In this document: piece by piece, positions 1 to 37,610 of the stretch
Numbering within the stretch: position 1 is the stretch's first letter
Layout: each line of letters opens with the position of its first letter
NCBI GenBank assembly: GCA_964536925.1
Contig: CAZHZF010000008.1
Coordinates: 7,479-71,478 of the forward strand
Reading direction: 5' to 3'
DNA length: 64,000 bases
Source of the DNA: an uncultured Dehalococcoidales bacterium
GTDB lineage: Bacteria > Chloroflexota > UBA6077 > FW602-bin22
Notes under the pieces: generated by a model
Database searches by the model: none
What the model saw: only the letters and a program-made list of their open reading frames with translations
Told to the model about the DNA's origin: nothing
Translations under genes and position numbers: made by a program

Positions 1-860
1 ATGGCGTGGACGTGCTCGTTCTGGAACGAATGGCCCCGGGCGGGCAACTGCTCAACGTCGAATCGATCGAGGACCTCCCCGGGCACCCGCGGGGCGTCGC
101 AGGCTACGACCTCGGGCCGATCCTTCACGAGCAGGCCGAGGCCGCCGGCGCTCGATTCGCACTGGCCGAGGTCGTCGGTCTGCGGCACGGGCAGGGGGAA
201 TGGCACGTCGACGCGGGGCGCGACTCCGCCTCGGCCCGATTCATTATTGTCGCGACGGGATCGATCCCCCGCCTTGCGGAGATCGCCGGGGTCGAGTCGC
301 TGGCGGGACGTGGCGTGAGCCACTGCGCGAGCTGCGATGCGCCGCTCTACCGTGGGCGCAACGTTGCTGTCATCGGCGGTGGCGACTCGGCGTTTCAGGA
401 AGCGCTGACCCTGGCGGGCCACGCCGCCGACGTCGCCATCCTCGCGCGGACCGTGCGGGCTCAGCGCGTCTATCGCGACCGGTGCGCTGAGCACGCCCGC
501 GTCCGCGTTCTCGACGGCGCAACAGCCGTGGCGGTCCGCGGCGCCGATGCGGTCGAAGGCGTGGACGTGATCGGGGTGCCCGGAATGGAGAGCCTCGAGG
601 TCTCGGGGGTCTTCCTCTCCATCGGCTCCGATCCTGCCACAGCCTGGCTGCCGCTCGGGGTCGAGCGCGACGGGGCCGGACATATCGCGGTCGATCTCTC
701 CCTGCGATCCACTGTGCCTACGATCTATGCGATCGGCGCTGCCCGGGCGCACTTCTCTGGTCAGGCGGTGTCTGCGGCTGGCGATGGCGCGACCGCGGCG
801 ATAGCAATCGCGCGCAGGCTGCGATCGGCGGAAGGTCAGGCGAGCGCGAGAGCGAGTTGA
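1..860 (+). CDS. Thioredoxin-disulfide reductase-like flavoprotein, 5' partial (N-terminus upstream of window)
   Basis: Frame of ORF 6..860 is open to the window edge. Redox CxxC in GVSHCASCDAPLY, NAD(P)H-binding VAVIGGGDSAFQEA, C-terminal IYAIGA...GDG motif. The N-terminal FAD GxGxxG is missing, so the gene is truncated by the window. Confidence 0.8.
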   Translation, partial: GVDVLVLERMAPGGQLLNVESIEDLPGHPRGVAGYDLGPILHEQAEAAGARFALAEVVGLRHGQGEWHVDAGRDSASARFIIVATGSIPRLAEIAGVESLAGRGVSHCASCDAPLYRGRNVAVIGGGDSAFQEALTLAGHAADVAILARTVRAQRVYRDRCAEHARVRVLDGATAVAVRGADAVEGVDVIGVPGMESLEVSGVFLSIGSDPATAWLPLGVERDGAGHIAVDLSLRSTVPTIYAIGAARAHFSGQAVSAAGDGATAAIAIARRLRSAEGQASARAS

Positions 861-2241: not shown

Positions 2242-2270
2242 TTGACCCTCCGAAGAGCGGTCGGTATGAT
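2242..2270 (+). promoter_or_regulatory. Sigma-70-like promoter for the tatA-like/rhodanese pair
   Basis: TTGACC (2242-2247), 17-nt spacer, TATGAT (2265-2270). SD GGAGGG follows at 2281-2286. Confidence 0.5.
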
Positions 2271-2290
2271 GCCGCGGCGCGGAGGGACCT

Positions 2291-2476
2291 CTGGACGTCG
2301 GCGGCATCGACCCGATCTATCTGGTCGTAGTTCCCGCCATTATCGCGATCGTGTTCGGGCCAAGCCGGTTGCCGCGCGCGCTGGCCGAACTCAATAGAGT
2401 GCGCGCGGCGTGGCGACAGGCCGTCCGCGAGGCGGAGGGGGCGCCCGCAGATTCCCCGCTGGAGGCGCCGCGATGA
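2291..2476 (+). CDS. TatA/E-like small membrane protein (61 aa), CTG start, absent from the ORF track
   Basis: Own translation: (M)[60 protein letters not shown]. It has a TM helix, an FGPxxLP hinge and an amphipathic helix, as in TatA. In-frame stop at 2267-2269, with no ATG/GTG/TTG before the TM helix. SD GGAGGG lies 4 nt before CTG 2291. The stop overlaps the rhodanese ATG (ATGA at 2473-2476). Confidence 0.6.
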   Translation: MDVGGIDPIYLVVVPAIIAIVFGPSRLPRALAELNRVRAAWRQAVREAEGAPADSPLEAPR

Positions 2477-3306
2477 CCGCGACGGAGTATGCTCGACCTG
2501 AGATCCTCGTCGAAACGACGTGGCTCGCCGCGCACCTCGACGATCCTTTGGTGCGCGTGGTGGATGCGGACTATCCGCAGTCGTACGCCCGGGCGCACAT
2601 TCCCGGCGCGGTCGGCCACCTCGACGCAAACATCTATCTCAAGTCGGAAGATGGCGCGACTCTGATGATGGACCCCGAGCGGTTCGCGCAGACGATGGCG
2701 CGGCTGGGGATCGGGAATGACACGACTGTCGTCGTGTACGACAGCCATACGAGCCTCTATGCGGCCCGCTTCTGGTGGATGCTCAAGGTCCACGGACATC
2801 GCGATGCGCGCATTCTCAACGGCGGCTGGCACAAGTGGCTTGCCGAAGGCCGGCCGATGACGATGGCGCGTGCGGCGCCCCGTGCGGCGACGTACCAGCC
2901 CGAGTTCGTCGATTCGTTGCACACCAGTTGCGATCTGCTGCGCGAGGCGATCGGTCGATCCGATAGCGTGATCGTCGACGTACGGAACATCGCCGAGTAC
3001 ACCGGTCAGAACGATCGGGGGAACAAGCGCCGCGGGCACGTCCCCGGCGCGATCCATCTCGAGTGGCTGGACTTCATGACCCAGGACGAGACCCACGTGG
3101 TTCGCCCGGCCGCGGAACTCCGCGCGATGCTCGAGAGTCGCGGGATCACCCGGGACAAGAACGTCTACGTCTATTGACAGGGCGGCATCCGTGCGGCGCA
3201 CGGAACTTTCATTCTCACTCTGCTGGGGTACGACCGGGTGCGCAACTACGACGGGTCCATGCGCGAGTGGGCGAACCGCGAGGACACGTCGCTCGTCGTG
3301 CCGTAA
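2473..3306 (+). CDS. Two-domain rhodanese (thiosulfate/3-mercaptopyruvate sulfurtransferase type) interrupted by in-frame TGA at the catalytic Cys position (Sec candidate or pseudogene)
   Basis: [32 protein letters not shown]... The track ORF ends at TGA 3175-3177. The same frame continues [42 protein letters not shown] to TAA 3304-3306, giving the active-site loop VYVY-[TGA]-QGGIRA. Confidence 0.85.
3188..3204 (+). other. Perfect 7-bp hairpin 10 nt downstream of the in-frame TGA (candidate bacterial SECIS-like element)
   Basis: TCCGTGC-GGC-GCACGGA; all 7 pairs are Watson-Crick and the apical loop is G-rich. Confidence 0.3.
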
Positions 3307-10487: not shown

Positions 10488-10909
10488 CAGGCTGGTCGCT
10501 CGGTCAGATGGAAGCGAAGCCCCTCCGTGGTCGCGGGATCCATGTAGATGAGACGGGCGCCCTCAGCGTTGCGGCGCGGTTCGGGCCAGAGACGCCGCAT
10601 CCCCTTACGCTCCAGTTCGGCCAGGCGGGCATCGAGGTCGGCCACGACGTAGCCGACGTGATCGAGGACGAGCAGCGGTCCGGCGCGGAGCGGGGCCACA
10701 TCCGCCGGCTCGATCAATTCGATCTCGGTGCCGCCGATCCGAAGAAAGGCGAGGTGTGCTCCGTCCGGGTTCTGCGTCTCCAGTTTCAATTCGGCCCCAA
10801 ACACCGAGCGGTAGAACGCGATGGCAGCGTGTCGGTCACGCGTCTGGTACCCGATGTGATAGACGTCCTCGAACACCTGTCTCCCCGTGGGCAGCGTGAT
10901 GTCGGCCAA
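10487..10909 (-). CDS. VOC-family (glyoxalase / methylmalonyl-CoA epimerase-like) protein
   Basis: 140 aa with paired beta-alpha-beta-beta-beta modules (HIGYQTRD..., LDHVGYVVADLD). Its stop shares one base with the DedA ATG. Confidence 0.8.
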   Translation of the reverse strand: MADITLPTGRQVFEDVYHIGYQTRDRHAAIAFYRSVFGAELKLETQNPDGAHLAFLRIGGTEIELIEPADVAPLRAGPLLVLDHVGYVVADLDARLAELERKGMRRLWPEPRRNAEGARLIYMDPATTEGLRFHLTERPA

Positions 10910-10958
10910 GGGTAACGAACCAGGCCCACCCTGGTCCCCTTTCTACAATGCGCTCCGC

Positions 10959-11948
10959 GTGCGTATCGCGCTGATCGGCAGTGGTTCCATCGCCGCCGCA
11001 CACGCGCGAGCGCTTCGCCGGATCGGCGAGAGCGACGCGGCGCTGAATCTCCAGCTTGTCGCCGTCGTCGGACGCGAGCAGGCCGGTACGGATCACTTTG
11101 CACGCGAACACGGCATCGATTGGGCGACGACAGAGTTCGATCGCGTTGTCGAATCCGCGGATATCGACGCCACGATCGTCTGCTCCCCCAGCGCGGTCCA
11201 CGCCGAACAGAGCCGGCGCGCGCTCCTCGCCGGCAAGCACGTCCTCTGCGAAATACCCGTGGCGCTGTCTCTGGCCGAGGCCGACGAACTCGCGGCGCTC
11301 GCGGCCGCGCACGGGCGGATCCTGATGGTGTGCCACACACAGCGGTACTACCCGGCGCTGGTCGAAGCGCGACGTCTCATCGCGGAGGGGGCGCTCCACC
11401 CCCACGCCCTGATCGCGCGATACGGCTTCCTGCGTCGCGAGAACGTGAATTGGATGGGGCGCCGCCGCACGTGGACCGATGACCTCATCTGGCATCACGG
11501 TGGCCACGCCGTCGACACCGCGCTATGGCTGCTGGGGCATCCGGTTGCGGCGGTGCGGGTGCTGATCGCCCAGCGGGACGATCGCCTCGGCATCCCACTC
11601 GACTACGGCATCCTCCTGCGAACGGTGCGGGATCAGATCGTCACCATCGCGATGTCCTACAACACGCACATCGCCGTGCACGACTATCTCGTCGTGGGCG
11701 AGGAGCGATCGATCCAGTATGTCGATGGCGAACTGCGCGATGCGTCCGGCACCCTCGTGCCACGCCCTGGCTCAGGCCCCGTGTCCGAACCAATCGTCGA
11801 GCAGGATCACGATTTCCTCCGCGCGGCGTGCGGTCAACGCGCATGTACGCTGGGAGTGGGTGACATCCGGCCGTCGCTGGAGGCGCTCCAGGTCCTCCAG
11901 CAGGAGTTCGACCGCCGGAACGAGGGCCACCACCCGCGCTACCCCTGA
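10959..11948 (+). CDS. Gfo/Idh/MocA-family oxidoreductase
   Basis: Rossmann N-terminus (M)RIALIGSGSIAAAHARAL. Start placed at GTG 10959, 9 nt after a TACAAT box. The track start at 10887 would overlap the divergent VOC gene. Confidence 0.8.
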   Translation: MRIALIGSGSIAAAHARALRRIGESDAALNLQLVAVVGREQAGTDHFAREHGIDWATTEFDRVVESADIDATIVCSPSAVHAEQSRRALLAGKHVLCEIPVALSLAEADELAALAAAHGRILMVCHTQRYYPALVEARRLIAEGALHPHALIARYGFLRRENVNWMGRRRTWTDDLIWHHGGHAVDTALWLLGHPVAAVRVLIAQRDDRLGIPLDYGILLRTVRDQIVTIAMSYNTHIAVHDYLVVGEERSIQYVDGELRDASGTLVPRPGSGPVSEPIVEQDHDFLRAACGQRACTLGVGDIRPSLEALQVLQQEFDRRNEGHHPRYP

Positions 11949-12625
11949 GGGAAGATCGGGTGGGCGCGCAGGTAGTCGCGCACGATCGGTGGCGTTTCCG
12001 CGGCCGCGCCGCGACGGACGCGGGTGGAAGAGAGGGCGCGGAGGCCAGGCTCGAGATCGAGCGGACCGACGAACTCCCGGTACGGCGTGTTCTCCGGCCG
12101 CGCCATCAGGTCATCGATATCGGTGAAGGTGGTGTCCGCGCGCGGGGCGACGAGGATCCGCGCCAGACGGAAAAGGTCTCGCAGCGCCGCGTCGCGATCG
12201 TCGTAGTAGCGTGGATCAAGGATCTGCACGATCTTGTCGAAACCCACGAGAAACGTGAGTCGCGCCGAAGTCACCCGGGTCACGGCCCGGGCGATCTCCA
12301 CGTAGAGGCCGCGATTGAGGAGGAGCACCCCATCATCGGAGTCCGCGGCGAGCCTCCGAAGAAGGTCGAGGCGATCGAGCAGAGGGATGCCCGTCACGAC
12401 CTCTTTGTCTACCGTCCTCGCGGCCAGAACGTAGGCGACCGCGTCGAGTCCGGCAGCTCTGCCGGAACGAGCGAGCCCTACGTGCGCCAGGGTTGGCGGA
12501 TTGAAGGATCCTGGCAGCAGACCGAGATGAGCGACCGGCCGACTGGGTCGCCGAATCCAGTCTGCCTGAGGCGGCAGCGCGGGATTGGCACCCTCCAGGA
12601 CGGCCCTCAGATCCATCGCGCACAC
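11939..12625 (-). CDS. Cytidylyltransferase-fold nucleotidyltransferase (NadD/NMNAT-like)
   Basis: GSFNPPTLAH (H/T-x-G-H class motif) and C-terminal SSTRVRR (ISSTxxR-like). Confidence 0.7.
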   Translation of the reverse strand: MCAMDLRAVLEGANPALPPQADWIRRPSRPVAHLGLLPGSFNPPTLAHVGLARSGRAAGLDAVAYVLAARTVDKEVVTGIPLLDRLDLLRRLAADSDDGVLLLNRGLYVEIARAVTRVTSARLTFLVGFDKIVQILDPRYYDDRDAALRDLFRLARILVAPRADTTFTDIDDLMARPENTPYREFVGPLDLEPGLRALSSTRVRRGAAAETPPIVRDYLRAHPIFPQG

Positions 12626-20768: not shown

Positions 20769-21635
20769 TCAGGCGGGAACCGCCTCTGGCCGCAACTGTG
20801 AGACGAACTCACGCAATTCCGAGGAGCCGTTGAAGGCGTTCCCGGGCGCGGGAAATGTCCCGGCGCGCACGTCGGACGCGTATCGCTCGATCGCCTGGCG
20901 AATCGTCGTCGAGATGTCGGCGTAACGACCGGCGTGCCGCGGGACGTGGTCCTGACCGGGATGGGCGACGAACCCAAGGAGGTCGTGCAGTACCTGGATC
21001 TGGCCGGAGCAGCCCGCGCCCGCGCCGATGCCGATCGTCGGCACGGTCAGGCGCCCCGTCACCACTTCGGCCAGAGCGGCCGGAACCAGCTCCAGAACGA
21101 CCGCGAACACCCCCGCGTCCTCCAGCGCAGCCACGTCATCGAGCAGGCGTTGCGCCGCCGCGCCCGAGTTCGCCTGGAGCCGATAGCCGCCAAGGGCGTG
21201 GACCGACTGGGGTGTAAGCCCGACGTGACCCATCACCGGGATACCCGCATCCACGATGCGCCGGATCGTTGCGGCCACGGTTCGGCCGCCCTCGAGTTTG
21301 ACCGCGCCCGCGCCACCCTTCTGAATGAGCGTTGCCGCGCCACGTATCGCCTGCTTGGCGCTGACCTGGTAGGTCAGAAACGGCATATCCGCAACTACCA
21401 GGGTGGATCGGACGGCGCGCGTGACCGCTGCCACGTGATGGCGCATCGCCGCGAGGGTGACGGGTACGGTCGATGGATAGCCGAGAACGACCATACCCAG
21501 GGTATCGCCGACCAGGAGGGCGTCGATTCCCGCCGCCTCAGCGAGTGCCGCGGTCGGGTAGTCGTAGGCGGTGACCATCGCGATGCGCGCCCCGGTAGCC
21601 TTGAGGCGGGCGAAGTCCGCCGCGGTATGAGCCAT
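20769..21635 (-). CDS. panB: 3-methyl-2-oxobutanoate hydroxymethyltransferase
   Basis: MVTAYDYPTA...LLVGDTLGMVVLGY...VKLEGG. Confidence 0.95.
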   Translation of the reverse strand: MAHTAADFARLKATGARIAMVTAYDYPTAALAEAAGIDALLVGDTLGMVVLGYPSTVPVTLAAMRHHVAAVTRAVRSTLVVADMPFLTYQVSAKQAIRGAATLIQKGGAGAVKLEGGRTVAATIRRIVDAGIPVMGHVGLTPQSVHALGGYRLQANSGAAAQRLLDDVAALEDAGVFAVVLELVPAALAEVVTGRLTVPTIGIGAGAGCSGQIQVLHDLLGFVAHPGQDHVPRHAGRYADISTTIRQAIERYASDVRAGTFPAPGNAFNGSSELREFVSQLRPEAVPA

Positions 21636-21769
21636 TGTGGCTCCTCACGAAAGGCTCGCGGCCGCCAGGGCGGTCCACGGCAGGCCGATTATATGGCTAC
21701 TATCCGGTCAGCCACGGGTCGCCAACCGAGCGCGGCCGGGTTCCCCCATCCTCTGGCGGAGCACGACAG

Positions 21770-22837: not shown

Positions 22838-24019
22838 CGCCAGCAATCCGACGACCCTATCGAGGATCTCGTCCGCGACTGCGCTCTTCGCCTGGAGAGG
22901 GCGCACGTCGACGCGCCCATCCGGGAAGACGAACGTGACCCGATTGGTGTCCGTCCCGAAGCCGCTTCCCTCCTCGCTCACGTCGTTGGCGACGATGAGA
23001 TCGACCTTTTTGGCGGTGACCTTGCCGCGGGCGCTCTCGATGAGATTGTCCGTCTCTGCGGCGAAACCGATCTTGATGCCGTGCCAGTCGGCGAGACCGG
23101 CCAGGATGTCCGGATTCGGCACCAGATCCAGGGTGATGGACGTACGACGTTTGATCTTCTGATCGGCGATCGCGGACGGACGGAAGTCTGCCGGCGCCGC
23201 GGCCATCACCAGGGCGCTCGCCGTCTCGATGGCGGCGTGGATCGCCTCCTCCATCTCGCGCGTCGACTCGACCGCCACGGCATCCACGCCCGCTGGCAGG
23301 GCCACCTGGAGCGGGCCGTGGATCAGCGTCACCCGCGCGCCGCGTCGTCGCGCCTGCTCGGCCACGGCCACACCCATCTTGCCGGAGGAACGGTTCCCGA
23401 TGAAACGTACCGGATCGATCGCCTCGCGGGTGCCCCCGGCGGTGACGACGACGTGCCGTCCCGCTAGATCGCTGCCTCGCCCGAACTCGCGTGCGATCGC
23501 ATCCACGATCTCCTCCGGTTCGGGCAGGCGCCCGCGACCGACCTGACCCGATGCGAGGCGGCCCTCGCCCGGTTCCATCACGATCGCGCCCCGGCGGCGC
23601 AGCAACGTCACGTTATCGACTGTGGCGGCGGCGGCCCACATCCTTGGCTCCATCGCTGGCGCGATCAGGAGTGGCGCGGTGGACGCCAAAACGGTGGCCG
23701 CCAGCGCGTCGTCGGCCAGACCGTGGGCGAGTCGGGCGATCGTGGCTGCGGTTGCCGGCGCGATAACGATCAGTTCGGCGGCGCGCCCCAGCGCGACGTG
23801 GCCGATCGCATCCGACGAGTCCTCGTCCCAGAGTTCGGTCAGGATGGGCCGCCCGGTGATAGCGCGGAACGAGAGCGGGGCGATGAAGCGGCGGGCGCTC
23901 GGCGTCATCACCACGTCGACCGACGCCCCGGCCTTCACAAGCTGGCTGGCGAGCGCAACCGCCTTGAACGCGGCGATCGAGCCGGAGACTCCGAGGACGA
24001 TCCGCCTTCCGGAGATCAC
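22805..24019 (-). CDS. coaBC: Bifunctional phosphopantothenoylcysteine decarboxylase / synthetase
   Basis: GVSGSIAAFKAVALASQL flavoprotein N-domain and CoaB C-domain. The GTG start overlaps the coaX stop (GTGA). Confidence 0.95.
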   Translation of the reverse strand: MISGRRIVLGVSGSIAAFKAVALASQLVKAGASVDVVMTPSARRFIAPLSFRAITGRPILTELWDEDSSDAIGHVALGRAAELIVIAPATAATIARLAHGLADDALAATVLASTAPLLIAPAMEPRMWAAAATVDNVTLLRRRGAIVMEPGEGRLASGQVGRGRLPEPEEIVDAIAREFGRGSDLAGRHVVVTAGGTREAIDPVRFIGNRSSGKMGVAVAEQARRRGARVTLIHGPLQVALPAGVDAVAVESTREMEEAIHAAIETASALVMAAAPADFRPSAIADQKIKRRTSITLDLVPNPDILAGLADWHGIKIGFAAETDNLIESARGKVTAKKVDLIVANDVSEEGSGFGTDTNRVTFVFPDGRVDVRPLQAKSAVADEILDRVVGLLALKEVVQPARA

Positions 24020-25747: not shown

Positions 25748-26890
25748 TCAGGTCCGAGCGCCTGTCGCGAAGGCCTGCAACAGGCGATCGATCACGATCG
25801 CCTCCTCGCCTTCCTCCAGCGTCTGCGGGTTGACGTAGATTCCGTCCCGACCCGAGGGAGACACCTCGACGTACGGGTTTCCCTCGCGCAGACGCGCGAC
25901 CAGAGTGTCCCGATCGATCCCGGCCGCACCGGCGTCGATCTCGATCTGCGCGCGGGGCATGGGCTGACCGGCTTCGCTCGGGAAATCACGCCGCGCGAAG
26001 ACCCCGCGCACGGCACGCATCGCTTCGACGACCCGCGAAACCTGTCGCTCGTAGCGGGCGATGAGGGCTGGTTCATCGAGACTGAGGTACCACTCCACCG
26101 CGGCGACGATGCCGGCGATCTCCTCCTTACCCACCTTCATTGGGCGCCCGATCGCGTTGTTCGGTGGCCCGTTGAGGCGAACCCCTTCGATGAGGTCGGC
26201 GCGCCCGACGATGAGCCCGGAGGACTGCGGCCCGCGCAATCCCTTGCCGCCGCTGAATACCGCGAGATCCGCGCCTGCCTCCGTATAGGCCCACAGGTTC
26301 GAGATCGGTGGGATCTGCGCGGCGCCATCCACGATCACGGGGACCGATCGCGCGTGGGCGATCTCGACCACGCGCGCCAGGGGAAGCGCCCCCTGCTCGA
26401 AGTGATACCCCGCAAAGTACACCACCGCCGCCGTCCGCTCGCTGAGAGCGGCCTCGAGTTCCCAGGCGTGGGTCACGCCGCGAAGGCCGATCTCGACCAG
26501 GCGGACGCCGGTCTGGCGTACCGCGTGGTCGTAGCCGTTCCGCTGGCAGCGATGGATGACGACCTCGTTCTTCAGTCCGGTGAGATCGTTCGGGAGGCGC
26601 GCGATGAGCGCCGGATCGGTGCCGGTGATGCATGCCGCGGTGCTCAGAGTCAGACCGGCAGCCGCACCGTTGCACAGGTATGCGGCCTGATTACGGGTCA
26701 TCCGCGCGACGCGCTGGCCCGCGGCCGCCTGGAGTGCCGGCACATCGATGAAGCTGCGCGACGCCCTGACCATCGCCTCGATCACGGGCGCGGGCATGAT
26801 CGAGCCGCCCAGGCGCGTCAGGGTAGCCGAGGCATTGATGACACGCCGGAGGCCGAGTTCATCGTAGAGATCGAGCTTGCTGACGGTCAC
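25748..26890 (-). CDS. SelA-family (COG1921-like) PLP-dependent enzyme lacking the SelA N-terminal domain
   Basis: FSGGKGLRGPQSSGLIVGR matches the SelA PLP-lysine region (FSGDKLLGGPQAG). About 380 aa from GTG 26890, which lies 5 nt after SD GGGAGG. Confidence 0.75.
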   Translation of the reverse strand: MTVSKLDLYDELGLRRVINASATLTRLGGSIMPAPVIEAMVRASRSFIDVPALQAAAGQRVARMTRNQAAYLCNGAAAGLTLSTAACITGTDPALIARLPNDLTGLKNEVVIHRCQRNGYDHAVRQTGVRLVEIGLRGVTHAWELEAALSERTAAVVYFAGYHFEQGALPLARVVEIAHARSVPVIVDGAAQIPPISNLWAYTEAGADLAVFSGGKGLRGPQSSGLIVGRADLIEGVRLNGPPNNAIGRPMKVGKEEIAGIVAAVEWYLSLDEPALIARYERQVSRVVEAMRAVRGVFARRDFPSEAGQPMPRAQIEIDAGAAGIDRDTLVARLREGNPYVEVSPSGRDGIYVNPQTLEEGEEAIVIDRLLQAFATGART

Positions 26891-26939
26891 GACGGCCTCC
26901 CGCGCCACTCGATGGTAGCAAGGCGCCCCCTCGGCCGCC

Positions 26940-27731
26940 TCAGGCCCGAATGACCAGTTCGACTCCCATGACGATGAGGTCGAGATCCTGGATCCCGTTG
27001 AGGGCGGCGAGATCGGCCACGGTGACACCGTGCGCCTCCGCGATCTGCCTCAGGGTATCGCCGGGTTTCACGACGTAGGTCACCCGTTGCGATCGGAGGC
27101 GCAGGGTCTGCCCCACCGCGATGAGGTCGGGGTTGGTGAGTTCGTTGAGCGCGATGAGATCCGAAACCGGCACGGCGTACCGGCGCGCGACCGCGTGCAG
27201 AGTCTCGCCCGCCGTAACCGCGTGCTCGATCGGCTCCGGCGTCGGCGTCGGAACGGGCGTTGCCGTGGGCGGGGGACGTGGTGGCACGGGCGGGGCGACC
27301 GCGCGCGACTGAGGCGCAGCTACCACAGGTGTGCCATCGGGCCCCGACACGACGTGGTACTCCACCGTGAATCCCCAGGAGTTCGGCGGGTCGAGCGCGA
27401 AGAAGGCCGCGCGGGAGAGATCGAGCGCGTGGGCGAATCCGCCGCGATCGCGCACCTGGACGATCACGAACCGCCCGTTCGCCGGGTTGATCACCTTCAG
27501 CCAGGTGCCGAACGGATACTGGTTCGAGGCAGTGGTGGTTGGATCGTTCTCGTCGAAGATCTGGCCATTCGCCATCACGTTGCCGTGAAATCCCGGCCCG
27601 TACCAGGTGGCATAGCCCGTCTCGGCCGAGGCCGGCACGATGACGGATGCGAGAAGGAGCAGAGCGCAGACGACAGCCGTTGTCAGTCGCCCCGCGACGC
27701 CGCGGGAAGCCATTGCCGGGCAGGCTAACAA
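26940..27731 (-). CDS. RlpA-like double-psi beta-barrel protein with two C-terminal LysM domains
   Basis: GYATWYGPGFHGNVMANGQIFD...VIVQVRDRG (DPBB) and two LysM repeats (VTAGETLHAVARRY..., VVKPGDTLRQIAEAHG...). Confidence 0.85.
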   Translation of the reverse strand: MLACPAMASRGVAGRLTTAVVCALLLLASVIVPASAETGYATWYGPGFHGNVMANGQIFDENDPTTTASNQYPFGTWLKVINPANGRFVIVQVRDRGGFAHALDLSRAAFFALDPPNSWGFTVEYHVVSGPDGTPVVAAPQSRAVAPPVPPRPPPTATPVPTPTPEPIEHAVTAGETLHAVARRYAVPVSDLIALNELTNPDLIAVGQTLRLRSQRVTYVVKPGDTLRQIAEAHGVTVADLAALNGIQDLDLIVMGVELVIRA

Positions 27732-28969: not shown

Positions 28970-29629
28970 CTAAGCGCCCGTCGCGGTGAGCAGCCCCTTG
29001 CGCAGGGCGTACTGGATCAACTGCGAGCGGTGATGGATGTCCAGCTTGTCCATGATCCGCTGGCGGTAGGTGTCGACAGTCTTGGCGCTGATGATCAGGC
29101 GATCCGCGATCTCCTGGGCCGAGTAGCCTTCCGCGGTGAGCTTGAGGACCTCACGCTCTCGCTCCGAGAGCCCATCCGCGGCGCGCGAGTCCTGGAGGAC
29201 GCGGCGGCGGTAATCGTCGAGGAGTTGACTCGCCGCTGATGGGCTGAGGACGGCGTCGCCCGCGTGGGCGCTCCGTATCGCCGCGATCAACTCCGTGTCG
29301 GCGGCCTGTTTGAGGACGCAACCCACGCTACCGGCCTGAAGCACCGGCAGGATGTACTGCTGCTCGGCGTGCATGGTGAGGACGACGACGCGGACATCCG
29401 GCGCGAGCGCCCCGATCTGGCGGGTAGCCTCCAGGCCTCCCATCACGGGCATGGAGAGGTCCATCACCACGAGGTCGGGCTTGAGGTGGATCGCCGCCTC
29501 AACCGCCTCGCGGCCGTTGCCGGCTTCGCCCACGACCACCATGTCCGGTTCGGCATTCAGGAGCGCCCGGAGCCCGGACCGCAGGACGGCGTGGTCATCG
29601 GCCAGAACGATGCGGATCGGTTCGCTCAC
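28970..29629 (-). CDS. NarL/FixJ-family response regulator (REC + LuxR HTH)
   Basis: IRIVLADDHAVLRSGL...DLVVMDLSMP...LSEREREVLKLTAEGYSAQEIADRL. The GTG start overlaps the kinase stop (GTGA). Confidence 0.9.
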   Translation of the reverse strand: MSEPIRIVLADDHAVLRSGLRALLNAEPDMVVVGEAGNGREAVEAAIHLKPDLVVMDLSMPVMGGLEATRQIGALAPDVRVVVLTMHAEQQYILPVLQAGSVGCVLKQAADTELIAAIRSAHAGDAVLSPSAASQLLDDYRRRVLQDSRAADGLSEREREVLKLTAEGYSAQEIADRLIISAKTVDTYRQRIMDKLDIHHRSQLIQYALRKGLLTATGA

Positions 29630-30783: not shown

Positions 30784-30813
30784 TTGACACCCCCGAAAAG
30801 TCGCCCATAGTAT
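30784..30813 (+). promoter_or_regulatory. Sigma-70-like promoter of the cytochrome bc operon
   Basis: TTGACA (30784-30789), 18-nt spacer, TAGTAT (30808-30813), 30 nt before the TTG start. Confidence 0.45.
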
Positions 30814-30843
30814 CTGGCGCTACTCCCTTCTCAGGGGTCTCCG

Positions 30844-31578
30844 TTGCGTCAGTACACGTTCGACGAGATCTCCCACTCGGTGCGAAACAGCCGGGTATGG
30901 CGATCGTTCTTCAGGCACGGCTGGCCGGAGACATCACGGGCCAAGGCGCTGACCGTGATGAACAACTTCTTCCTGCACGTGCACCCGACCCGTTTGCCCG
31001 CCCACGCGCTGAAGGTCACGTACACGTTCTGCCTTGGCGGCCTCTCGTTCTTCCTGTTCCTGATGCTCACGCTGACAGGCATCCTGCTCATGTTCTACTA
31101 CGTACCTGACATCAATCGTGCCTACACGGACATGAAGGCGCTGGAGTCGGCGGTCAACTTCGGGATGCTGATGCGCAATGTCCACCGATGGGCGGCCCAC
31201 GGCATGGTGATCACCGTATTCCTCCATATGTGCCGGGTCTTCTACACCGGCTCGTACAAGCCCCCTCGCGAGTTCAACTGGGTCATCGGGGTGGCGCTGC
31301 TGCTGGTCACATTCCTCCTGTCGTTCTCGGGGTACTTGCTACCGTGGGATCAGCTGTCGTTCTGGGCCATTACCGTGGGCACGGGTCTGGCGACCTACGC
31401 GCCGTTCATCGGTCCGGAGATTCGCTTCCAGCTCATCGGCGGCTACGAGGTGGGTCAGAACGCGCTGATCCGCTTCTACACTCTGCATGTCATCGGTCTG
31501 CCGACGGTCGCGCTGTTGCTGATGTTCGTCCACTTCTGGAGGATCCGGAAGGACGGCGGCATCTCGCGGCCGCTCTGA
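30844..31578 (+). CDS. Cytochrome b6-type (split cytochrome b, N-terminal four-helix half)
   Basis: [25 protein letters not shown]...[12 protein letters not shown]...[15 protein letters not shown]...FYTLHV, with conserved haem-ligand His positions. Confidence 0.9.
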
Positions 31579-31602
31579 TCGCGGGCGCGGGGAGGGATCG
31601 AG

Positions 31603-32412
31603 TTGGCGGAAGCAGGCGCTGAGCGGCAGATGCCGATGGCGGCGGATGCTGCCACGGGCGGAAGCGGTAACAGGCTGCTGGAGGCGGCGCGCCGTGTCGA
31701 ACGGCGGGAGCCGGCCGCGGCGTCTCCGGGCCAGGGCAAGCAACAGGACATGGTCATGGTCTGGCCGCAGCTCGTCTCGATCGAGTTCGTGGCGATGCTC
31801 GTGTTCACGATCATGCTCCTGCTCCTCGGTACCTTCGTCAACTCGCCGTTGGCGCTCCTCGCCAACCCGGACTCGACGCCGAACCCGTCGAAGGCGCCCT
31901 GGTACTTCCTGAACCTGCAGGAACTGCTCCTGCACATGCATCCCACGCTCGCCGGCGTCCTCGTACCGGGTGGTGCGCTCCTGCTCCTGGCGGCGATCCC
32001 GTACGTCGACAACACGCCGGCGGGCACGGGGCGCTGGTTCACCAGCACGATGGGCCGCGAGATCACGGTCTTCTCGATGATCTATGCGACCGTCCTCAAC
32101 ATCGCGATGATCCTCTTCAACGAGTACGTCGGCGTCCGCCGCCTCCTCCAGCCTCTGCCGCTCCCGTCGTTCATCACGGTGAGCATCATCGAGATCGTGA
32201 TACCGGTGGCACTGATGTACGGTCTCTCGCACCTGCTTGTGGTGTGGGTCCGGAGACGTTGGCCGGGTGCCGATACGCGCCATTGTCTGATCGCGCTTTT
32301 CAGCGGGTTCGTGGCGACCTATATCGTCCTGACGATGAGCGGGACCGCGTTCCGAGGTGAGGGAATGCATCTCTTCTGGCCGTGGGATGTGACCACCCAC
32401 GGACTTCACTGA
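31603..32412 (+). CDS. Cytochrome bc subunit IV-like protein (C-terminal half of cytochrome b), extended
   Basis: SKAPWYFLNLQELL (PEWY-type motif) and multiple TM helices. The N-terminal start is uncertain. Confidence 0.8.
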   Translation: MAEAGAERQMPMAADAATGGSGNRLLEAARRVERREPAAASPGQGKQQDMVMVWPQLVSIEFVAMLVFTIMLLLLGTFVNSPLALLANPDSTPNPSKAPWYFLNLQELLLHMHPTLAGVLVPGGALLLLAAIPYVDNTPAGTGRWFTSTMGREITVFSMIYATVLNIAMILFNEYVGVRRLLQPLPLPSFITVSIIEIVIPVALMYGLSHLLVVWVRRRWPGADTRHCLIALFSGFVATYIVLTMSGTAFRGEGMHLFWPWDVTTHGLH

Positions 32413-32425
32413 CAGGAGTCCGCGG

Positions 32426-32965
32426 TTGGCGCATGAGATGGCCCATCCCGGGGCGCACGTCGTGGGCGGCCCATGGGGCATCACCCGGCGATGGTTCCTC
32501 CGACTCGCGGTGCTCGGCAGCCTCGGCGCGGTCGCCACGCAGGCGATCGGGTGCTTCATCCATTTCTACTACCCGACGCGCGTCGGTACATTCGGCGGCC
32601 GCGTGCTGGCCGGTAAGCCAGAGGACCTGAAGGTCGGTGACACGAAGTATGTGCGCGAGGGCAAGTTCTACCTGACGCGGGTGCCGGATGGATATCTGGC
32701 GCTCTTCCAGAAATGTCCGCATCTCGGCTGCGTCGTGCCGTGGAAGCCGGATGACCCGACGGAGGACAACCTGGCGGCCAAAGGCCGCTTCAACTGCGGC
32801 TGTCACGGCTCGATCTACGATCGGTATGGCGTCCTCAAGGCAGGCCCGGCGCCACGGCCCATGGACTTCATGCCCATCACGATCGAGAACGGCAATCTGA
32901 TCGTCGATACCGGGAGAGCCACCACACGCGCGGCATACGATCCATCTCAGGCGCTCCCGGTCTAG
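32426..32965 (+). CDS. Rieske [2Fe-2S] protein with Tat signal
   Basis: TRRWFLRLAVLGSLG; CPHLGC...CGCHGS Rieske boxes. Confidence 0.9.
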   Translation: MAHEMAHPGAHVVGGPWGITRRWFLRLAVLGSLGAVATQAIGCFIHFYYPTRVGTFGGRVLAGKPEDLKVGDTKYVREGKFYLTRVPDGYLALFQKCPHLGCVVPWKPDDPTEDNLAAKGRFNCGCHGSIYDRYGVLKAGPAPRPMDFMPITIENGNLIVDTGRATTRAAYDPSQALPV

Positions 32966-32968
32966 CGG

Positions 32969-33937
32969 ATGGGCCAGTACTTCGTTCTTCTGACCGGCGG
33001 CGCACCCGCGGCACCACCGTCCTCGTCCGGGGGCGTGCATCTCGACGAGAACCTTCTGCAGGCCGGCTTCCTCGTCCTGATCCTCGTCGGTATCGCCCTG
33101 GCCGCGGCGCTCTACGTCGCGAATGTCCTCGACGTTCCGTGGCGACGCGCGATGTCGAACACCGATCGTCAGGCGATCGTCAACGGACTGATGATCACGT
33201 TCATCGCGGTCATCGTCGGGATCTATACGCTCGTCGAGCCGGCGCGACTCGCGGGCGCCACGAATCGTCAGATGGACTACTCGATAAACCGTGGAATGAA
33301 CCTCTACGGGCAGTACTGCATTGGCTGCCATGGTCTTCAGGGGCAAGGAGGGCCGGTCCCCGCCGACATCGCTGAGGGTGCGTTCGCGCCGCCCCTCGCC
33401 GGCCGCGCCGACCTCCGACCCGAGTCCCAGGCGGAGATGACGCAGAAGGCCGAGTTCCTCCGTAAGGTGATCGAGCGTGGGCGGCCAAACACCGCGATGC
33501 CCGCGTGGTCGATTACGGAGGGAGGCGCTCTCAACAGCCAGGACGTCGAGAACCTCGTTGACTTCGTGCAGCGAGGCGACTTCGCCTCCGTCACATCCGT
33601 GATGAGTGCCGAGGCAGTCGCCAAGGCAGAGGCGACCGCGGTCGCGGGAGGAGCCGCGATCTCCTCAGGTGGTCCGGGCCGGGCGCTCTTCCTCTCCAAG
33701 GGGTGTGCGGCGTGCCACACGATCCAGGGTGTGTCGTCGGGTACGGTGGGCCCCGCGCTCACGACGCAGGGTTCCAACCCGCAGATTGCAGGCGTGCTGG
33801 AGAACACTCGGGAGAACCTCATCCGCTGGATCCTCGATCCTCCCGCCGTGAAGCCGGGCACCCAGATGCCGAAGCTGGCCACGATCACGCAGCAGGACGC
33901 CGAGGTTCTGGCGGATTACCTGCAGTCGCTGAAGTAG
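32969..33937 (+). CDS. Membrane-anchored dihaem cytochrome c
   Basis: Two CxxCH motifs (CIGCH, CAACH) and two N-terminal TM helices. Confidence 0.85.
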   Translation: MGQYFVLLTGGAPAAPPSSSGGVHLDENLLQAGFLVLILVGIALAAALYVANVLDVPWRRAMSNTDRQAIVNGLMITFIAVIVGIYTLVEPARLAGATNRQMDYSINRGMNLYGQYCIGCHGLQGQGGPVPADIAEGAFAPPLAGRADLRPESQAEMTQKAEFLRKVIERGRPNTAMPAWSITEGGALNSQDVENLVDFVQRGDFASVTSVMSAEAVAKAEATAVAGGAAISSGGPGRALFLSKGCAACHTIQGVSSGTVGPALTTQGSNPQIAGVLENTRENLIRWILDPPAVKPGTQMPKLATITQQDAEVLADYLQSLK

Positions 33938-36809: not shown

Positions 36810-37610
36810 TCAACGATACCAGCGGTGATAGTGATGCAGCGGCCCGTGCCCGTGGCCCAGTCCCCAGGCAGCGACGATCGCCTCGTGCAGGTAGGTCTTC
36901 GCGAACGCGACCGCAGCGGGAACGTCGTCCCCGTGGGCGAGTCGTGCGGCGATCGCGGCCGCGAAGGTGCATCCGGTCCCGTGCGTGCTGGTGGTGGCGA
37001 CGCGAGATGCACGGAACTCCCAGAACCGATCGCCATCGTGGAGCAGGTCCACCACCTCAACACCGCTGCGATGCCCCCCCTTCATCACCACCCAGCGGGC
37101 ACCGAGGCGGACGATCTCCCCGGCGGCGGCGCGGACCGCCTCGTCCGATTCGATCGGGTGCCCGACGATCACCTCTGCCTCAGGGTGGTTCGGCGTCACG
37201 ACCAGGGCCCGCGGAATCAATCTCCCCCGCAGCGCACTCACCGCATCCTCGGCCAGCAGGCGGGCGCCGCTCTTCGCCACCATCACCGGATCGACGACGA
37301 GGCGAGAGAACGCGTGTCGATCGGCCAGGCCCGCGACCAGGTCGATGATCGTCGCGGTTCCCAGCATGCCGGTCTTCACCGCATCGACGCCGATATCCTC
37401 GACCACGGCGTCCACCTGCGCGGCGATCAGATCGTTCGAGAGAATCTCCGCCGCGCTGACCGCGCGCGTATTCTGGGCCGTGACCGCGGTGATCGCGGTC
37501 ATGCCGAACACGCCGAGGGCGCCGAAAGTCTTGAGGTCGGCCTGGATGCCGGCGCCGCCGCCCGAATCGGAGCCGGCGATCGTCAGCGCCCGTGGATGGG
37601 CCGCGTTCAT
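36810..37610 (-). CDS. thiD: Hydroxymethylpyrimidine / phosphomethylpyrimidine kinase
   Basis: ALTIAGSDSGGGAGIQADLKTF. The ATG overlaps the thiL stop (ATGA). Confidence 0.92.
   Translation of the reverse strand: MNAAHPRALTIAGSDSGGGAGIQADLKTFGALGVFGMTAITAVTAQNTRAVSAAEILSNDLIAAQVDAVVEDIGVDAVKTGMLGTATIIDLVAGLADRHAFSRLVVDPVMVAKSGARLLAEDAVSALRGRLIPRALVVTPNHPEAEVIVGHPIESDEAVRAAAGEIVRLGARWVVMKGGHRSGVEVVDLLHDGDRFWEFRASRVATTSTHGTGCTFAAAIAARLAHGDDVPAAVAFAKTYLHEAIVAAWGLGHGHGPLHHYHRWYR

Follow-up and report, generated by a model that had tools for sequence, protein, structure and literature searches.

A predicted selenocysteine at the catalytic site of a two-domain rhodanese-type sulfurtransferase from an uncultured Dehalococcoidales bacterium

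Why does a rhodanese gene of an uncultured Dehalococcoidales bacterium (Chloroflexota) carry a stop codon at the very position of the catalytic cysteine, and why does its reading frame stay open behind that codon? We have addressed this question in a stretch of 64,000 nucleotides (assembly GCA_964536925.1, contig CAZHZF010000008.1, positions 7,479 to 71,478), which is called the window in this text. A preliminary description, made by a model from the DNA letters, had noticed an in-frame TGA in a rhodanese open reading frame (ORF) with a hairpin just behind it and had proposed that the TGA encodes selenocysteine (Sec). Sequence reading and translation confirmed each coordinate that it gave for the ORF, the TGA, the TAA, and the hairpin. 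On the plus strand, the frame of 2473-3306 opens with ATG at 2473, meets the in-frame TGA at 3175-3177, continues for 42 sense codons, and ends with TAA at 3304-3306; the starts of the orthologues among the protein homologues, which read MTA(A/T)EYARPE, agree with that of the window. We consider that this "stop" codon within the sulfurtransferase gene almost certainly encodes Sec at the catalytic site. With high confidence, we predict that 2473-3306 forms a single gene and that its product, a rhodanese-type sulfurtransferase of two domains and 277 residues, uses Sec as the catalytic nucleophile. Its features are as follows.

2473..3306, plus strand: complete coding sequence of the predicted selenoprotein, 277 codons with Sec as codon 235, a two-domain rhodanese-type sulfurtransferase (translation, Pfam, alignment with the solved rhodanese 1uar)

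3175..3177, plus strand: UGA, predicted to be read as Sec235, in the catalytic Cys column, with the active-site loop U-Q-G-G-I-R-A (motif UxxG; 1uar alignment and orthologue column)

3178..3303, plus strand: the 42 codons after the UGA, which cover the catalytic rhodanese domain from its active-site loop through the last strand and helices, aligning with the 1uar core to residue 269

3188..3204, plus strand: candidate upper stem-loop of a bacterial selenocysteine insertion sequence (SECIS), with the 7-bp stem UCCGUGC/GCACGGA, the apical loop GGC, and a UGA-to-loop spacing of 17 nt

3304..3306, plus strand: TAA, the true stop codon of the predicted selenoprotein (sequence reading, translation)

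When Cys was placed at the TGA, the product showed two PF00581 (Rhodanese) stretches in Pfam (E 5e-39), and its best NCBIfam match was PRK11493/SseA over residues 10-273. In the comparison with the PDB, the best solved relative was the Thermus thermophilus rhodanese 1uar (E 2e-53, residues 6-269 aligned), and the two-domain rhodaneses of the PDB align end to end with the window product. By all three comparisons, the product belongs to the COG2897/SseA class and has two rhodanese domains in tandem. The TGA pairs exactly with the catalytic Cys of 1uar ('vvyCRiaeRs' against 'yvy[TGA]QGGIRA'), which bears out the assignment of the TGA to the catalytic Cys column in the preliminary description. Its further claim that the frame behind the TGA encodes the missing end of the catalytic domain also held, since the 42 codons of the tail can be aligned with 1uar over the active-site loop and the rest of its core. 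Full-length Cys homologues have their Cys at the column where the window has TGA. The Sec/Cys pair that marks a bacterial selenoprotein gene is seen in 1uar, in the orthologue column, and in the Cys forms of the family, and with U-Q-G-G in the window, the predicted Sec opens a UxxG motif and occupies the catalytic position.

The solved Cys-type rhodaneses 1uar, Azotobacter RhdA (1e0c), bovine rhodanese (1rhd), and Escherichia coli SseA (1urh) have the same fold as the window protein, with an inactive N-terminal and a catalytic C-terminal domain (E 2e-53 to 6e-33). On the one hand, a six-residue loop with Arg at +5 is common to the window protein, RhdA (CQTHHRS), and 1uar (CRIAERS), and the Q at +1 in the window loop is the same as in RhdA. 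On the other hand, the nucleophile would be Sec in the window protein and is Cys in all four solved enzymes, and the mercaptopyruvate sulfurtransferase loop CG[ST]GVTA differs from the window loop. Two more specific family assignments were rejected. Against the SseA 3-mercaptopyruvate sulfurtransferase equivalog (NF008557), the product reached 140.4 bits with a cutoff of 250, and it is therefore a relative rather than an equivalog. Against the rhodanese-related (seleno)protein NF041203 (LYCAU/CxU), it reached 33.1 bits with a cutoff of 115, the match lying on residues 68-129 of the inactive domain. The NF041203 type resembles the window protein in having a rhodanese fold and a Sec near the active site, but it is a single-domain protein of another subfamily with a CxU motif, whereas the window protein has two domains and UxxG.

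A TGA in a Cys column may also stand for an original TGC or TGT, be it through a recent nonsense mutation, as a lesion of a pseudogene, or by faulty sequencing or assembly, considering that TGA is one substitution away from either codon and that Cys forms of this rhodanese family exist. We therefore take the codon column across the DNA of 166 related loci, which together with the window make 167, with the Cys-column codon placed by tblastn. These loci show 40-90% identity, and nearly all GTDB hits among them are metagenome-assembled genomes (MAGs) of Chloroflexota/Dehalococcoidia, including several closed long-read chromosomes, with a few labelled Binatia or Deltaproteobacteria. The preliminary description had left it to an alignment of orthologues whether this column holds Cys or TGA. 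The codon was TGA in 161/167, TGC in 4, and TGT in 2 (Cys in 6/167), counts that describe the subfamily of the window only, with a large Cys-type subfamily (YRRAH, VPGA[KR]H) lying outside the locus sample. The loci with the Sec form, which belong mainly to Chloroflexota/Dehalococcoidia, come from lakes, groundwater, soil, and the ocean. About 40 of the best 120 protein homologues (57-90% identical) have been called at about 233 aa; all 19 of the shortened homologues that we inspected end in ...V[YHFV][VTAI]Y, at the residue preceding the Cys column, and the remaining homologues are full length. UGA-containing orthologues with conservation on both sides of the UGA are thus present elsewhere. 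Because the TGA is conserved at 40-90% identity in independent short-read and long-read assemblies, complete chromosomes among them, a recent nonsense mutation and a base-call error are ruled out. A lesion or error of any kind would also have to account for a tail under protein-level purifying selection and for a hairpin that co-occurs specifically with the TGA, both described below, and we give this group of explanations next to no probability.

Whether the codons behind the TGA are translated can be read from their variability. At 155 TGA loci, the tail is readable to the stop, giving 146 distinct sequences. It is 40-47 codons long, ends with a genuine stop every time (TAG 72, TGA 45, TAA 38 in the 155 loci), and has a consensus that closes with ...RNYDGSM.EWANR.D. 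In codons 10-36 of the 146 distinct tails, the entropy at codon positions 1/2/3 was 0.66/0.56/1.28. Since this variability is codon-periodic, we consider that the tail is translated, and as judged from this pattern purifying selection acts on the protein that it encodes.

The tail bears directly on a second explanation, in which the TGA terminates translation. The product would then be a 234-residue rhodanese without the catalytic loop, and the tail would be reached through occasional SECIS-independent readthrough by near-cognate Trp, Cys, or Arg, or would have another role. Gene callers and GenBank indeed give a shortened product, such as MBM4418105.1 ending in ...VHVY, and Sec machinery was absent from the approximately 30 of 52 window ORFs that were screened. 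But a product without the active-site loop, the last strand, and the helices of the 1uar core would be catalytically dead, and at the protein level the tail is nevertheless fully constrained. SelB-dependent recoding, moreover, predicts both the synonymous sites frozen only in the stem and the replacement hairpins, which are reported below, and a probable selenoprotein gene of the UGSC family adjoins the locus in the closest relatives. We consider termination at this codon improbable.

Recoding of the UGA as Sec calls for a signal close behind it, and the hairpin TCCGTGC-GGC-GCACGGA at 3188-3204, 10 nt past the TGA, is the candidate. The perfect 17-nt hairpin of the preliminary description can be read in the sequence and folds as the minimum free energy (MFE) structure, which is also the centroid structure, at -10.7 kcal/mol. 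The MFE of a whole segment separates Sec forms poorly from synonymous recodings, and it was replaced by a positional stem-length test. For the window, synonymous recoding of the peptide yields p = 0.02 for a 7-bp stem at the hairpin position. In 134/136 distinct TGA forms, a stem of 6 bp or more without interruption begins 10-19 nt past the UGA and is closed by a loop of 3-4 nt, the mean stem being 6.85 bp in TGA forms versus 4.18 bp in their synonymous recodings. Such a stem was present in 1/10 Cys forms, with a mean of 3.9 bp. Accordingly, the hairpin is kept in TGA forms and rare in Cys forms, a comparison that the preliminary description had proposed as a check.

L051 and L106 are the two TGA forms whose uninterrupted stem falls short of 6 bp. 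In L051 (10715-10783), CGC replaces CGT, so that the hairpin has a C-A mismatch at its centre, and in L106 the stem is weakened. Decay of the selenoprotein gene or an error of assembly could explain either case.

The E. coli fdhF SECIS is the paradigm of SelB-dependent UGA recoding; it has a bulged U and a GGUC-type loop. Both this element and the window hairpin are stem-loops in the coding region that start at a similar distance past the UGA (about 11 nt in fdhF, 10 nt in the window), and both have a short upper stem with a G-rich apical loop. In contrast to fdhF, the window hairpin has neither a bulged U nor a GGUC-type loop, but GGC on a perfect 7-bp stem, and it fits the general model of the bacterial SECIS (bSECIS) rather than the E. 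coli element. That model asks for an apical loop of 3-9 nt, an upper stem of 4-16 bp, a G in the first two loop positions, a UGA-to-loop distance of 16-37 nt, and an MFE of -7.5 kcal/mol or lower (PMC13188914). The window hairpin has values within all of these bounds: its loop is GGC, its stem has 7 bp, the UGA-to-loop distance is 17 nt, and the MFE is -10.7 kcal/mol. Across the TGA forms, the loops are GGC, GUC, GUU, GUG, or AGUU, so that a G always lies within the first two loop positions.

The codons that form the stem show a further constraint. In 138 distinct TGA forms, with codon use across these genes as the background, the stem Arg codon is CGT in 116/138 (84%, background 10%), both stem Ala codons are GCG in 136/138 (background 32%), the stem His codon is CAC in 116/116, and the Gly codon closing the stem is GGA in 82 (background 12%). 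Two positions upstream, a neighbouring Gly codon is unconstrained (GGC 48, GGT 38, GGA 23, GGG 10). The third-position entropy is 0.10-0.79 in the five codons that make up most of the stem, versus 1.2-1.85 on either side. In Cys forms whose peptide is likewise IRAAHG, these codons are CGG/CGC/CGA, GCC/GCA, and CAT, and the stem is lost. In the sequences compared, the synonymous freezing is confined to the hairpin codons of TGA forms.

Where the peptide behind the UGA differs between clades, the hairpin differs as well. Besides the type with peptide HG, the hairpin is GGCGAACA-GUY-UGUUCGUC in the clade with peptide NS, AGCGCAG-UCU-GCGCU in that with QS, and CGCGGC-AGUU-GCCGCG in that with VA. 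Four unrelated hairpin sequences therefore lie at a near-equal distance from the UGA in different clades, and such differing hairpins are structural replacements of one another. From this comparative pattern, we infer that the hairpin 3188-3204 acts as a bacterial SECIS.

Several results weigh against these interpretations and have to be set beside them. Regarding the hairpin, that of the window alone has z = -0.59 against dinucleotide shuffles, and the MFE of the 45 nt past the UGA lies only 0.58 standard deviations below that of synonymous recodings (mean z = -0.58). By these values the hairpin is unremarkable when taken singly, and it is the comparison between sequences that decides. The main hairpin, which hardly varies, shows no pair-by-pair covariation, and RNAalifold returned no consensus structure for 138 sequences downstream of the UGA, because several hairpin types are mixed in this alignment. 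An extension by a lower stem (columns 10-18 with 37-48) was rejected, as it was paired in 79.6% compared with 78.9% in shuffles and its covariation score was not significant. Regarding the sample, only 10 Cys-form DNA sequences served as controls, and the peptide patterns with which we collected the loci derived mostly from TGA forms, so that 161/167 overstates the Sec fraction of the wider family. Regarding the machinery, no selA, selB, or selD was found among the approximately 30 of 52 called window ORFs that were compared with Pfam and NCBIfam, which covered the SelA and SelB size classes and most of the SelD class. ARAGORN detected no tRNA-Sec in the flanks of 60 related genome loci, and a tblastn search with E. 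coli SelD as the bait gave no match in the related loci, which amount to 1.9 Mb.

Searches of the same kind gave the following results. Around the TGA and hairpin site, Rfam had no match even at E <=10. No tRNA-Sec was detected in the window by ARAGORN and Rfam; its tRNAs are tRNA-Ala and tRNA-Ser only, and a third ARAGORN call is dubious. This call, an 84-nt tRNA-Arg(CCG) at 20953-21036 (minus strand), has no Rfam tRNA match at E <=1, sits inside the coding-like ORF 20769-21644 (minus strand), and is probably a false positive. The ORF 25751-27049 (minus strand) was rejected as SelA: it gives 43 bits with PF03841, but TIGR01437 (226 bits) exceeds TIGR00474 (50 bits), which makes it a DgaE/selA_rel lyase, a pyridoxal phosphate-dependent enzyme easily mistaken for Sec machinery. 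As for the wider class, BSepDB holds Dehalococcoidia MAGs with 46-49 selenoprotein genes.

A frame that stays open past a TGA could also mean an altered genetic code, in which TGA stands for Trp or Gly and no special recoding takes place. The open frame is all that speaks for this explanation. On the contrary, 31 of the 52 coding-like ORFs of the window end in TGA, in line with the statement of the preliminary description that TGA is an ordinary stop elsewhere; the GTGA/ATGA overlaps that it cited (24016-24019, 29626-29629, and 37607-37610) exist and lie on the minus strand. Homologues have Cys in the column, and not Trp or Gly. Besides 3175-3177, we found no in-frame TGA in the window that lies inside a domain with coding signal on both sides; the other candidates, a split cytochrome b and a ROK/DHDPS pair, were rejected as gene boundaries. 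We consider an altered code extremely improbable. The split cytochrome b belongs to an operon at 30811-33937 (plus strand) that consists of a b6-like N-terminal part (30811-31578) and a subunit-IV-like C-terminal part (31579-32412), with genes for a Rieske protein and a di-haem cytochrome c behind them. Both parts of cytochrome b lie in one frame with a single TGA between them, which is an ordinary b6-type gene boundary.

Considering that translation past the UGA as Sec is the preferred explanation, the course of events can be proposed from established bacterial Sec insertion. SelB-GTP-Sec-tRNA(Sec) would bind the loop of 3188-3204, and Sec would be inserted instead of termination once the UGA 3175-3177 is in the ribosomal A site. 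The ribosome would then unwind the stem, translate the hairpin as I-R-A-A-H-G, and continue to the TAA at 3304. In the finished enzyme, the selenolate of Sec235 in the U-Q-G-G-I-R-A cradle may take up sulfane sulfur (or selenium) as an Se-S (or Se-Se) adduct, and following the double-displacement mechanism of rhodaneses this adduct would hand the sulfur (or selenium) to an acceptor. Compared with Cys, Sec has a lower pKa and a higher nucleophilicity.

We also examined the surroundings of the gene, for which the closest relatives of the window are L003 and L007 (L007 being VGOZ01000027.1, a Chloroflexi MAG), with a rhodanese 90% and a DnaK 99% identical to those of the window. In L003 (5635-7281, plus strand), and also in L007, a 547-codon gene lies 3.2 kb upstream of the rhodanese gene and has an in-frame TGA in GVGH-U-STC. 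Its N-terminal 170 residues match NF041046, 'UGSC family (seleno)protein', with 59.9 bits and E 3e-16, below the cutoff of 125; the C-terminal part of about 400 residues is fused to it and has no NCBIfam match. Gene callers split this gene into ORFs of 97 aa and 438 aa, and L001 has a copy that is 79% identical. By synteny with the closest relatives, its position corresponds to a site just outside the start of the window. The UGSC-family gene is probably a second selenoprotein of the lineage of the window, and its presence in the closest relatives would lend indirect support to the use of Sec in this lineage. Two neighbours of the rhodanese gene lie within the window.

6..860, plus strand: thioredoxin reductase (TrxR)-like flavoprotein gene (TIGR01292, 203 bits, below cutoff), which directly follows the UGSC-family gene in the closest relatives

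2270..2476, plus strand: small ORF for a diverged TatA-like membrane peptide, its stop overlapping the rhodanese ATG (ATGA, 2473-2476)

In the close clade, the order is UGSC, TrxR-like, radical SAM, a 121-aa ORF, the TatA-like ORF, and rhodanese, followed on the opposite strand by DnaJ-DnaK-HspR. This synteny of TatA, UGSC, TrxR-like, and DnaJK genes is limited to the close clade, and no neighbour is conserved across the whole Sec-rhodanese family. The only recurrent neighbour that we found family-wide is an arylsulfotransferase (ASST, PF05935/PF14269)-like gene, which lies directly downstream in 17/63 Sec-rhodanese loci, for example at 10695-12137 (plus strand) in L070. Regarding the coupling of the rhodanese gene to a tatA-like ORF, claimed in the preliminary description, the ATGA overlap at 2473-2476 is real, but the likeness to TatA is weak (Pfam TatA_B_E 17.8 bits, cutoff 21) and a canonical start is absent at the homologous position. 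The orthologue in L001, a relative at greater distance, is a clear TatA with 57.9 bits, and in L003 and L007 the ORF has diverged too (17.8 bits or no match, the window included). The TTG start of L003 is GTC in the window, where no ATG, GTG, or TTG occurs ahead of the GTG at 2351 (41 aa). The ORF 2270-2476 may be a decaying or unusually initiated gene.

A rhodanese selenoprotein has precedents. In 2005, the Sargasso Sea data gave a then new selenoprotein family, 'Rhodanese-related sulfurtransferase' (COG2897), which comprised 3 sequences and for which a SECIS was predicted in AACY01016424 (PMC1088965). The family recurred in 2008 in the Global Ocean Sampling (GOS) data, with 8 sequences as cd01449 and 1 as COG2897 (PMC2398784). 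A review of 2026 lists rhodanese-like forms 2 and 4 with the motif UxxG, form 4 being the Sargasso COG2897 family, and the single-domain CxU type (NF041203) as form 3 (PMC13188914). Published representatives are AACY01016424, MCY3690685.1, and MBM9537886.1. The statement of the preliminary description that rhodanese-like selenoproteins had been predicted from metagenomes is thus correct. Both the published COG2897 family and the window gene are of the COG2897/PF00581 rhodanese type with Sec in the place of Cys and UxxG (U-Q-G-G in the window), in both, Cys homologues are numerous and a SECIS hairpin with a G in a small apical loop lies just downstream, and both have been predicted by bioinformatics only. 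As identified by COG class and motif rather than by alignment, the window gene is a further, mis-annotated member of this known predicted family. The published counts are 3 and 8(+1) marine sequences, compared with the Sec form in at least 160 loci here.

The mis-annotation can be followed in GenBank. MBM4418105.1 from L007 (303 aa, with a spurious N-terminal extension of 69 residues) and TAK21567.1 (232 aa; L002/L009, SCUE01000031.1) are each recorded as a 'sulfurtransferase' ending at the Sec codon, and both end in ...V[HY][VT]Y.

In summary, the conserved TGA column, the UGA-specific hairpin, and the translated tail support the Sec interpretation with which this study started. Because the gene belongs to an already predicted selenoprotein family, the surprise to specialists will be small, and the finding leaves current concepts unchanged. 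The present study shows in addition how widely the Sec form occurs in Chloroflexota, how cleanly Sec and Cys forms differ in the freezing of synonymous sites, and that one protein scaffold carries four alternative SECIS hairpins. The natural Sec/Cys pair, with its simple and well-understood persulfide chemistry, offers a system for studying the selection of Sec over Cys, and the natural set of SECIS variants on one scaffold offers one for studying what SelB needs in non-model phyla. A broader interpretation, which we hold to be unlikely as a whole, is that Sec and not Cys would be the standard catalytic residue of this sulfurtransferase subfamily across Chloroflexota/Dehalococcoidia (79/80 of the closest species-level genomes), with a recoding signal rebuilt at least four times and an enzyme that may act on selenium. 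In that case, the protein may be a carrier of Se-Se perselenide that feeds selenophosphate synthesis or a UGSC/TrxR-like redox relay, as opposed to a plain thiosulfate sulfurtransferase. For the family as it is recorded at present, public annotation stops at the UGA, and in hundreds of Chloroflexota genomes the record of a predicted catalytically complete enzyme therefore lacks the active site.

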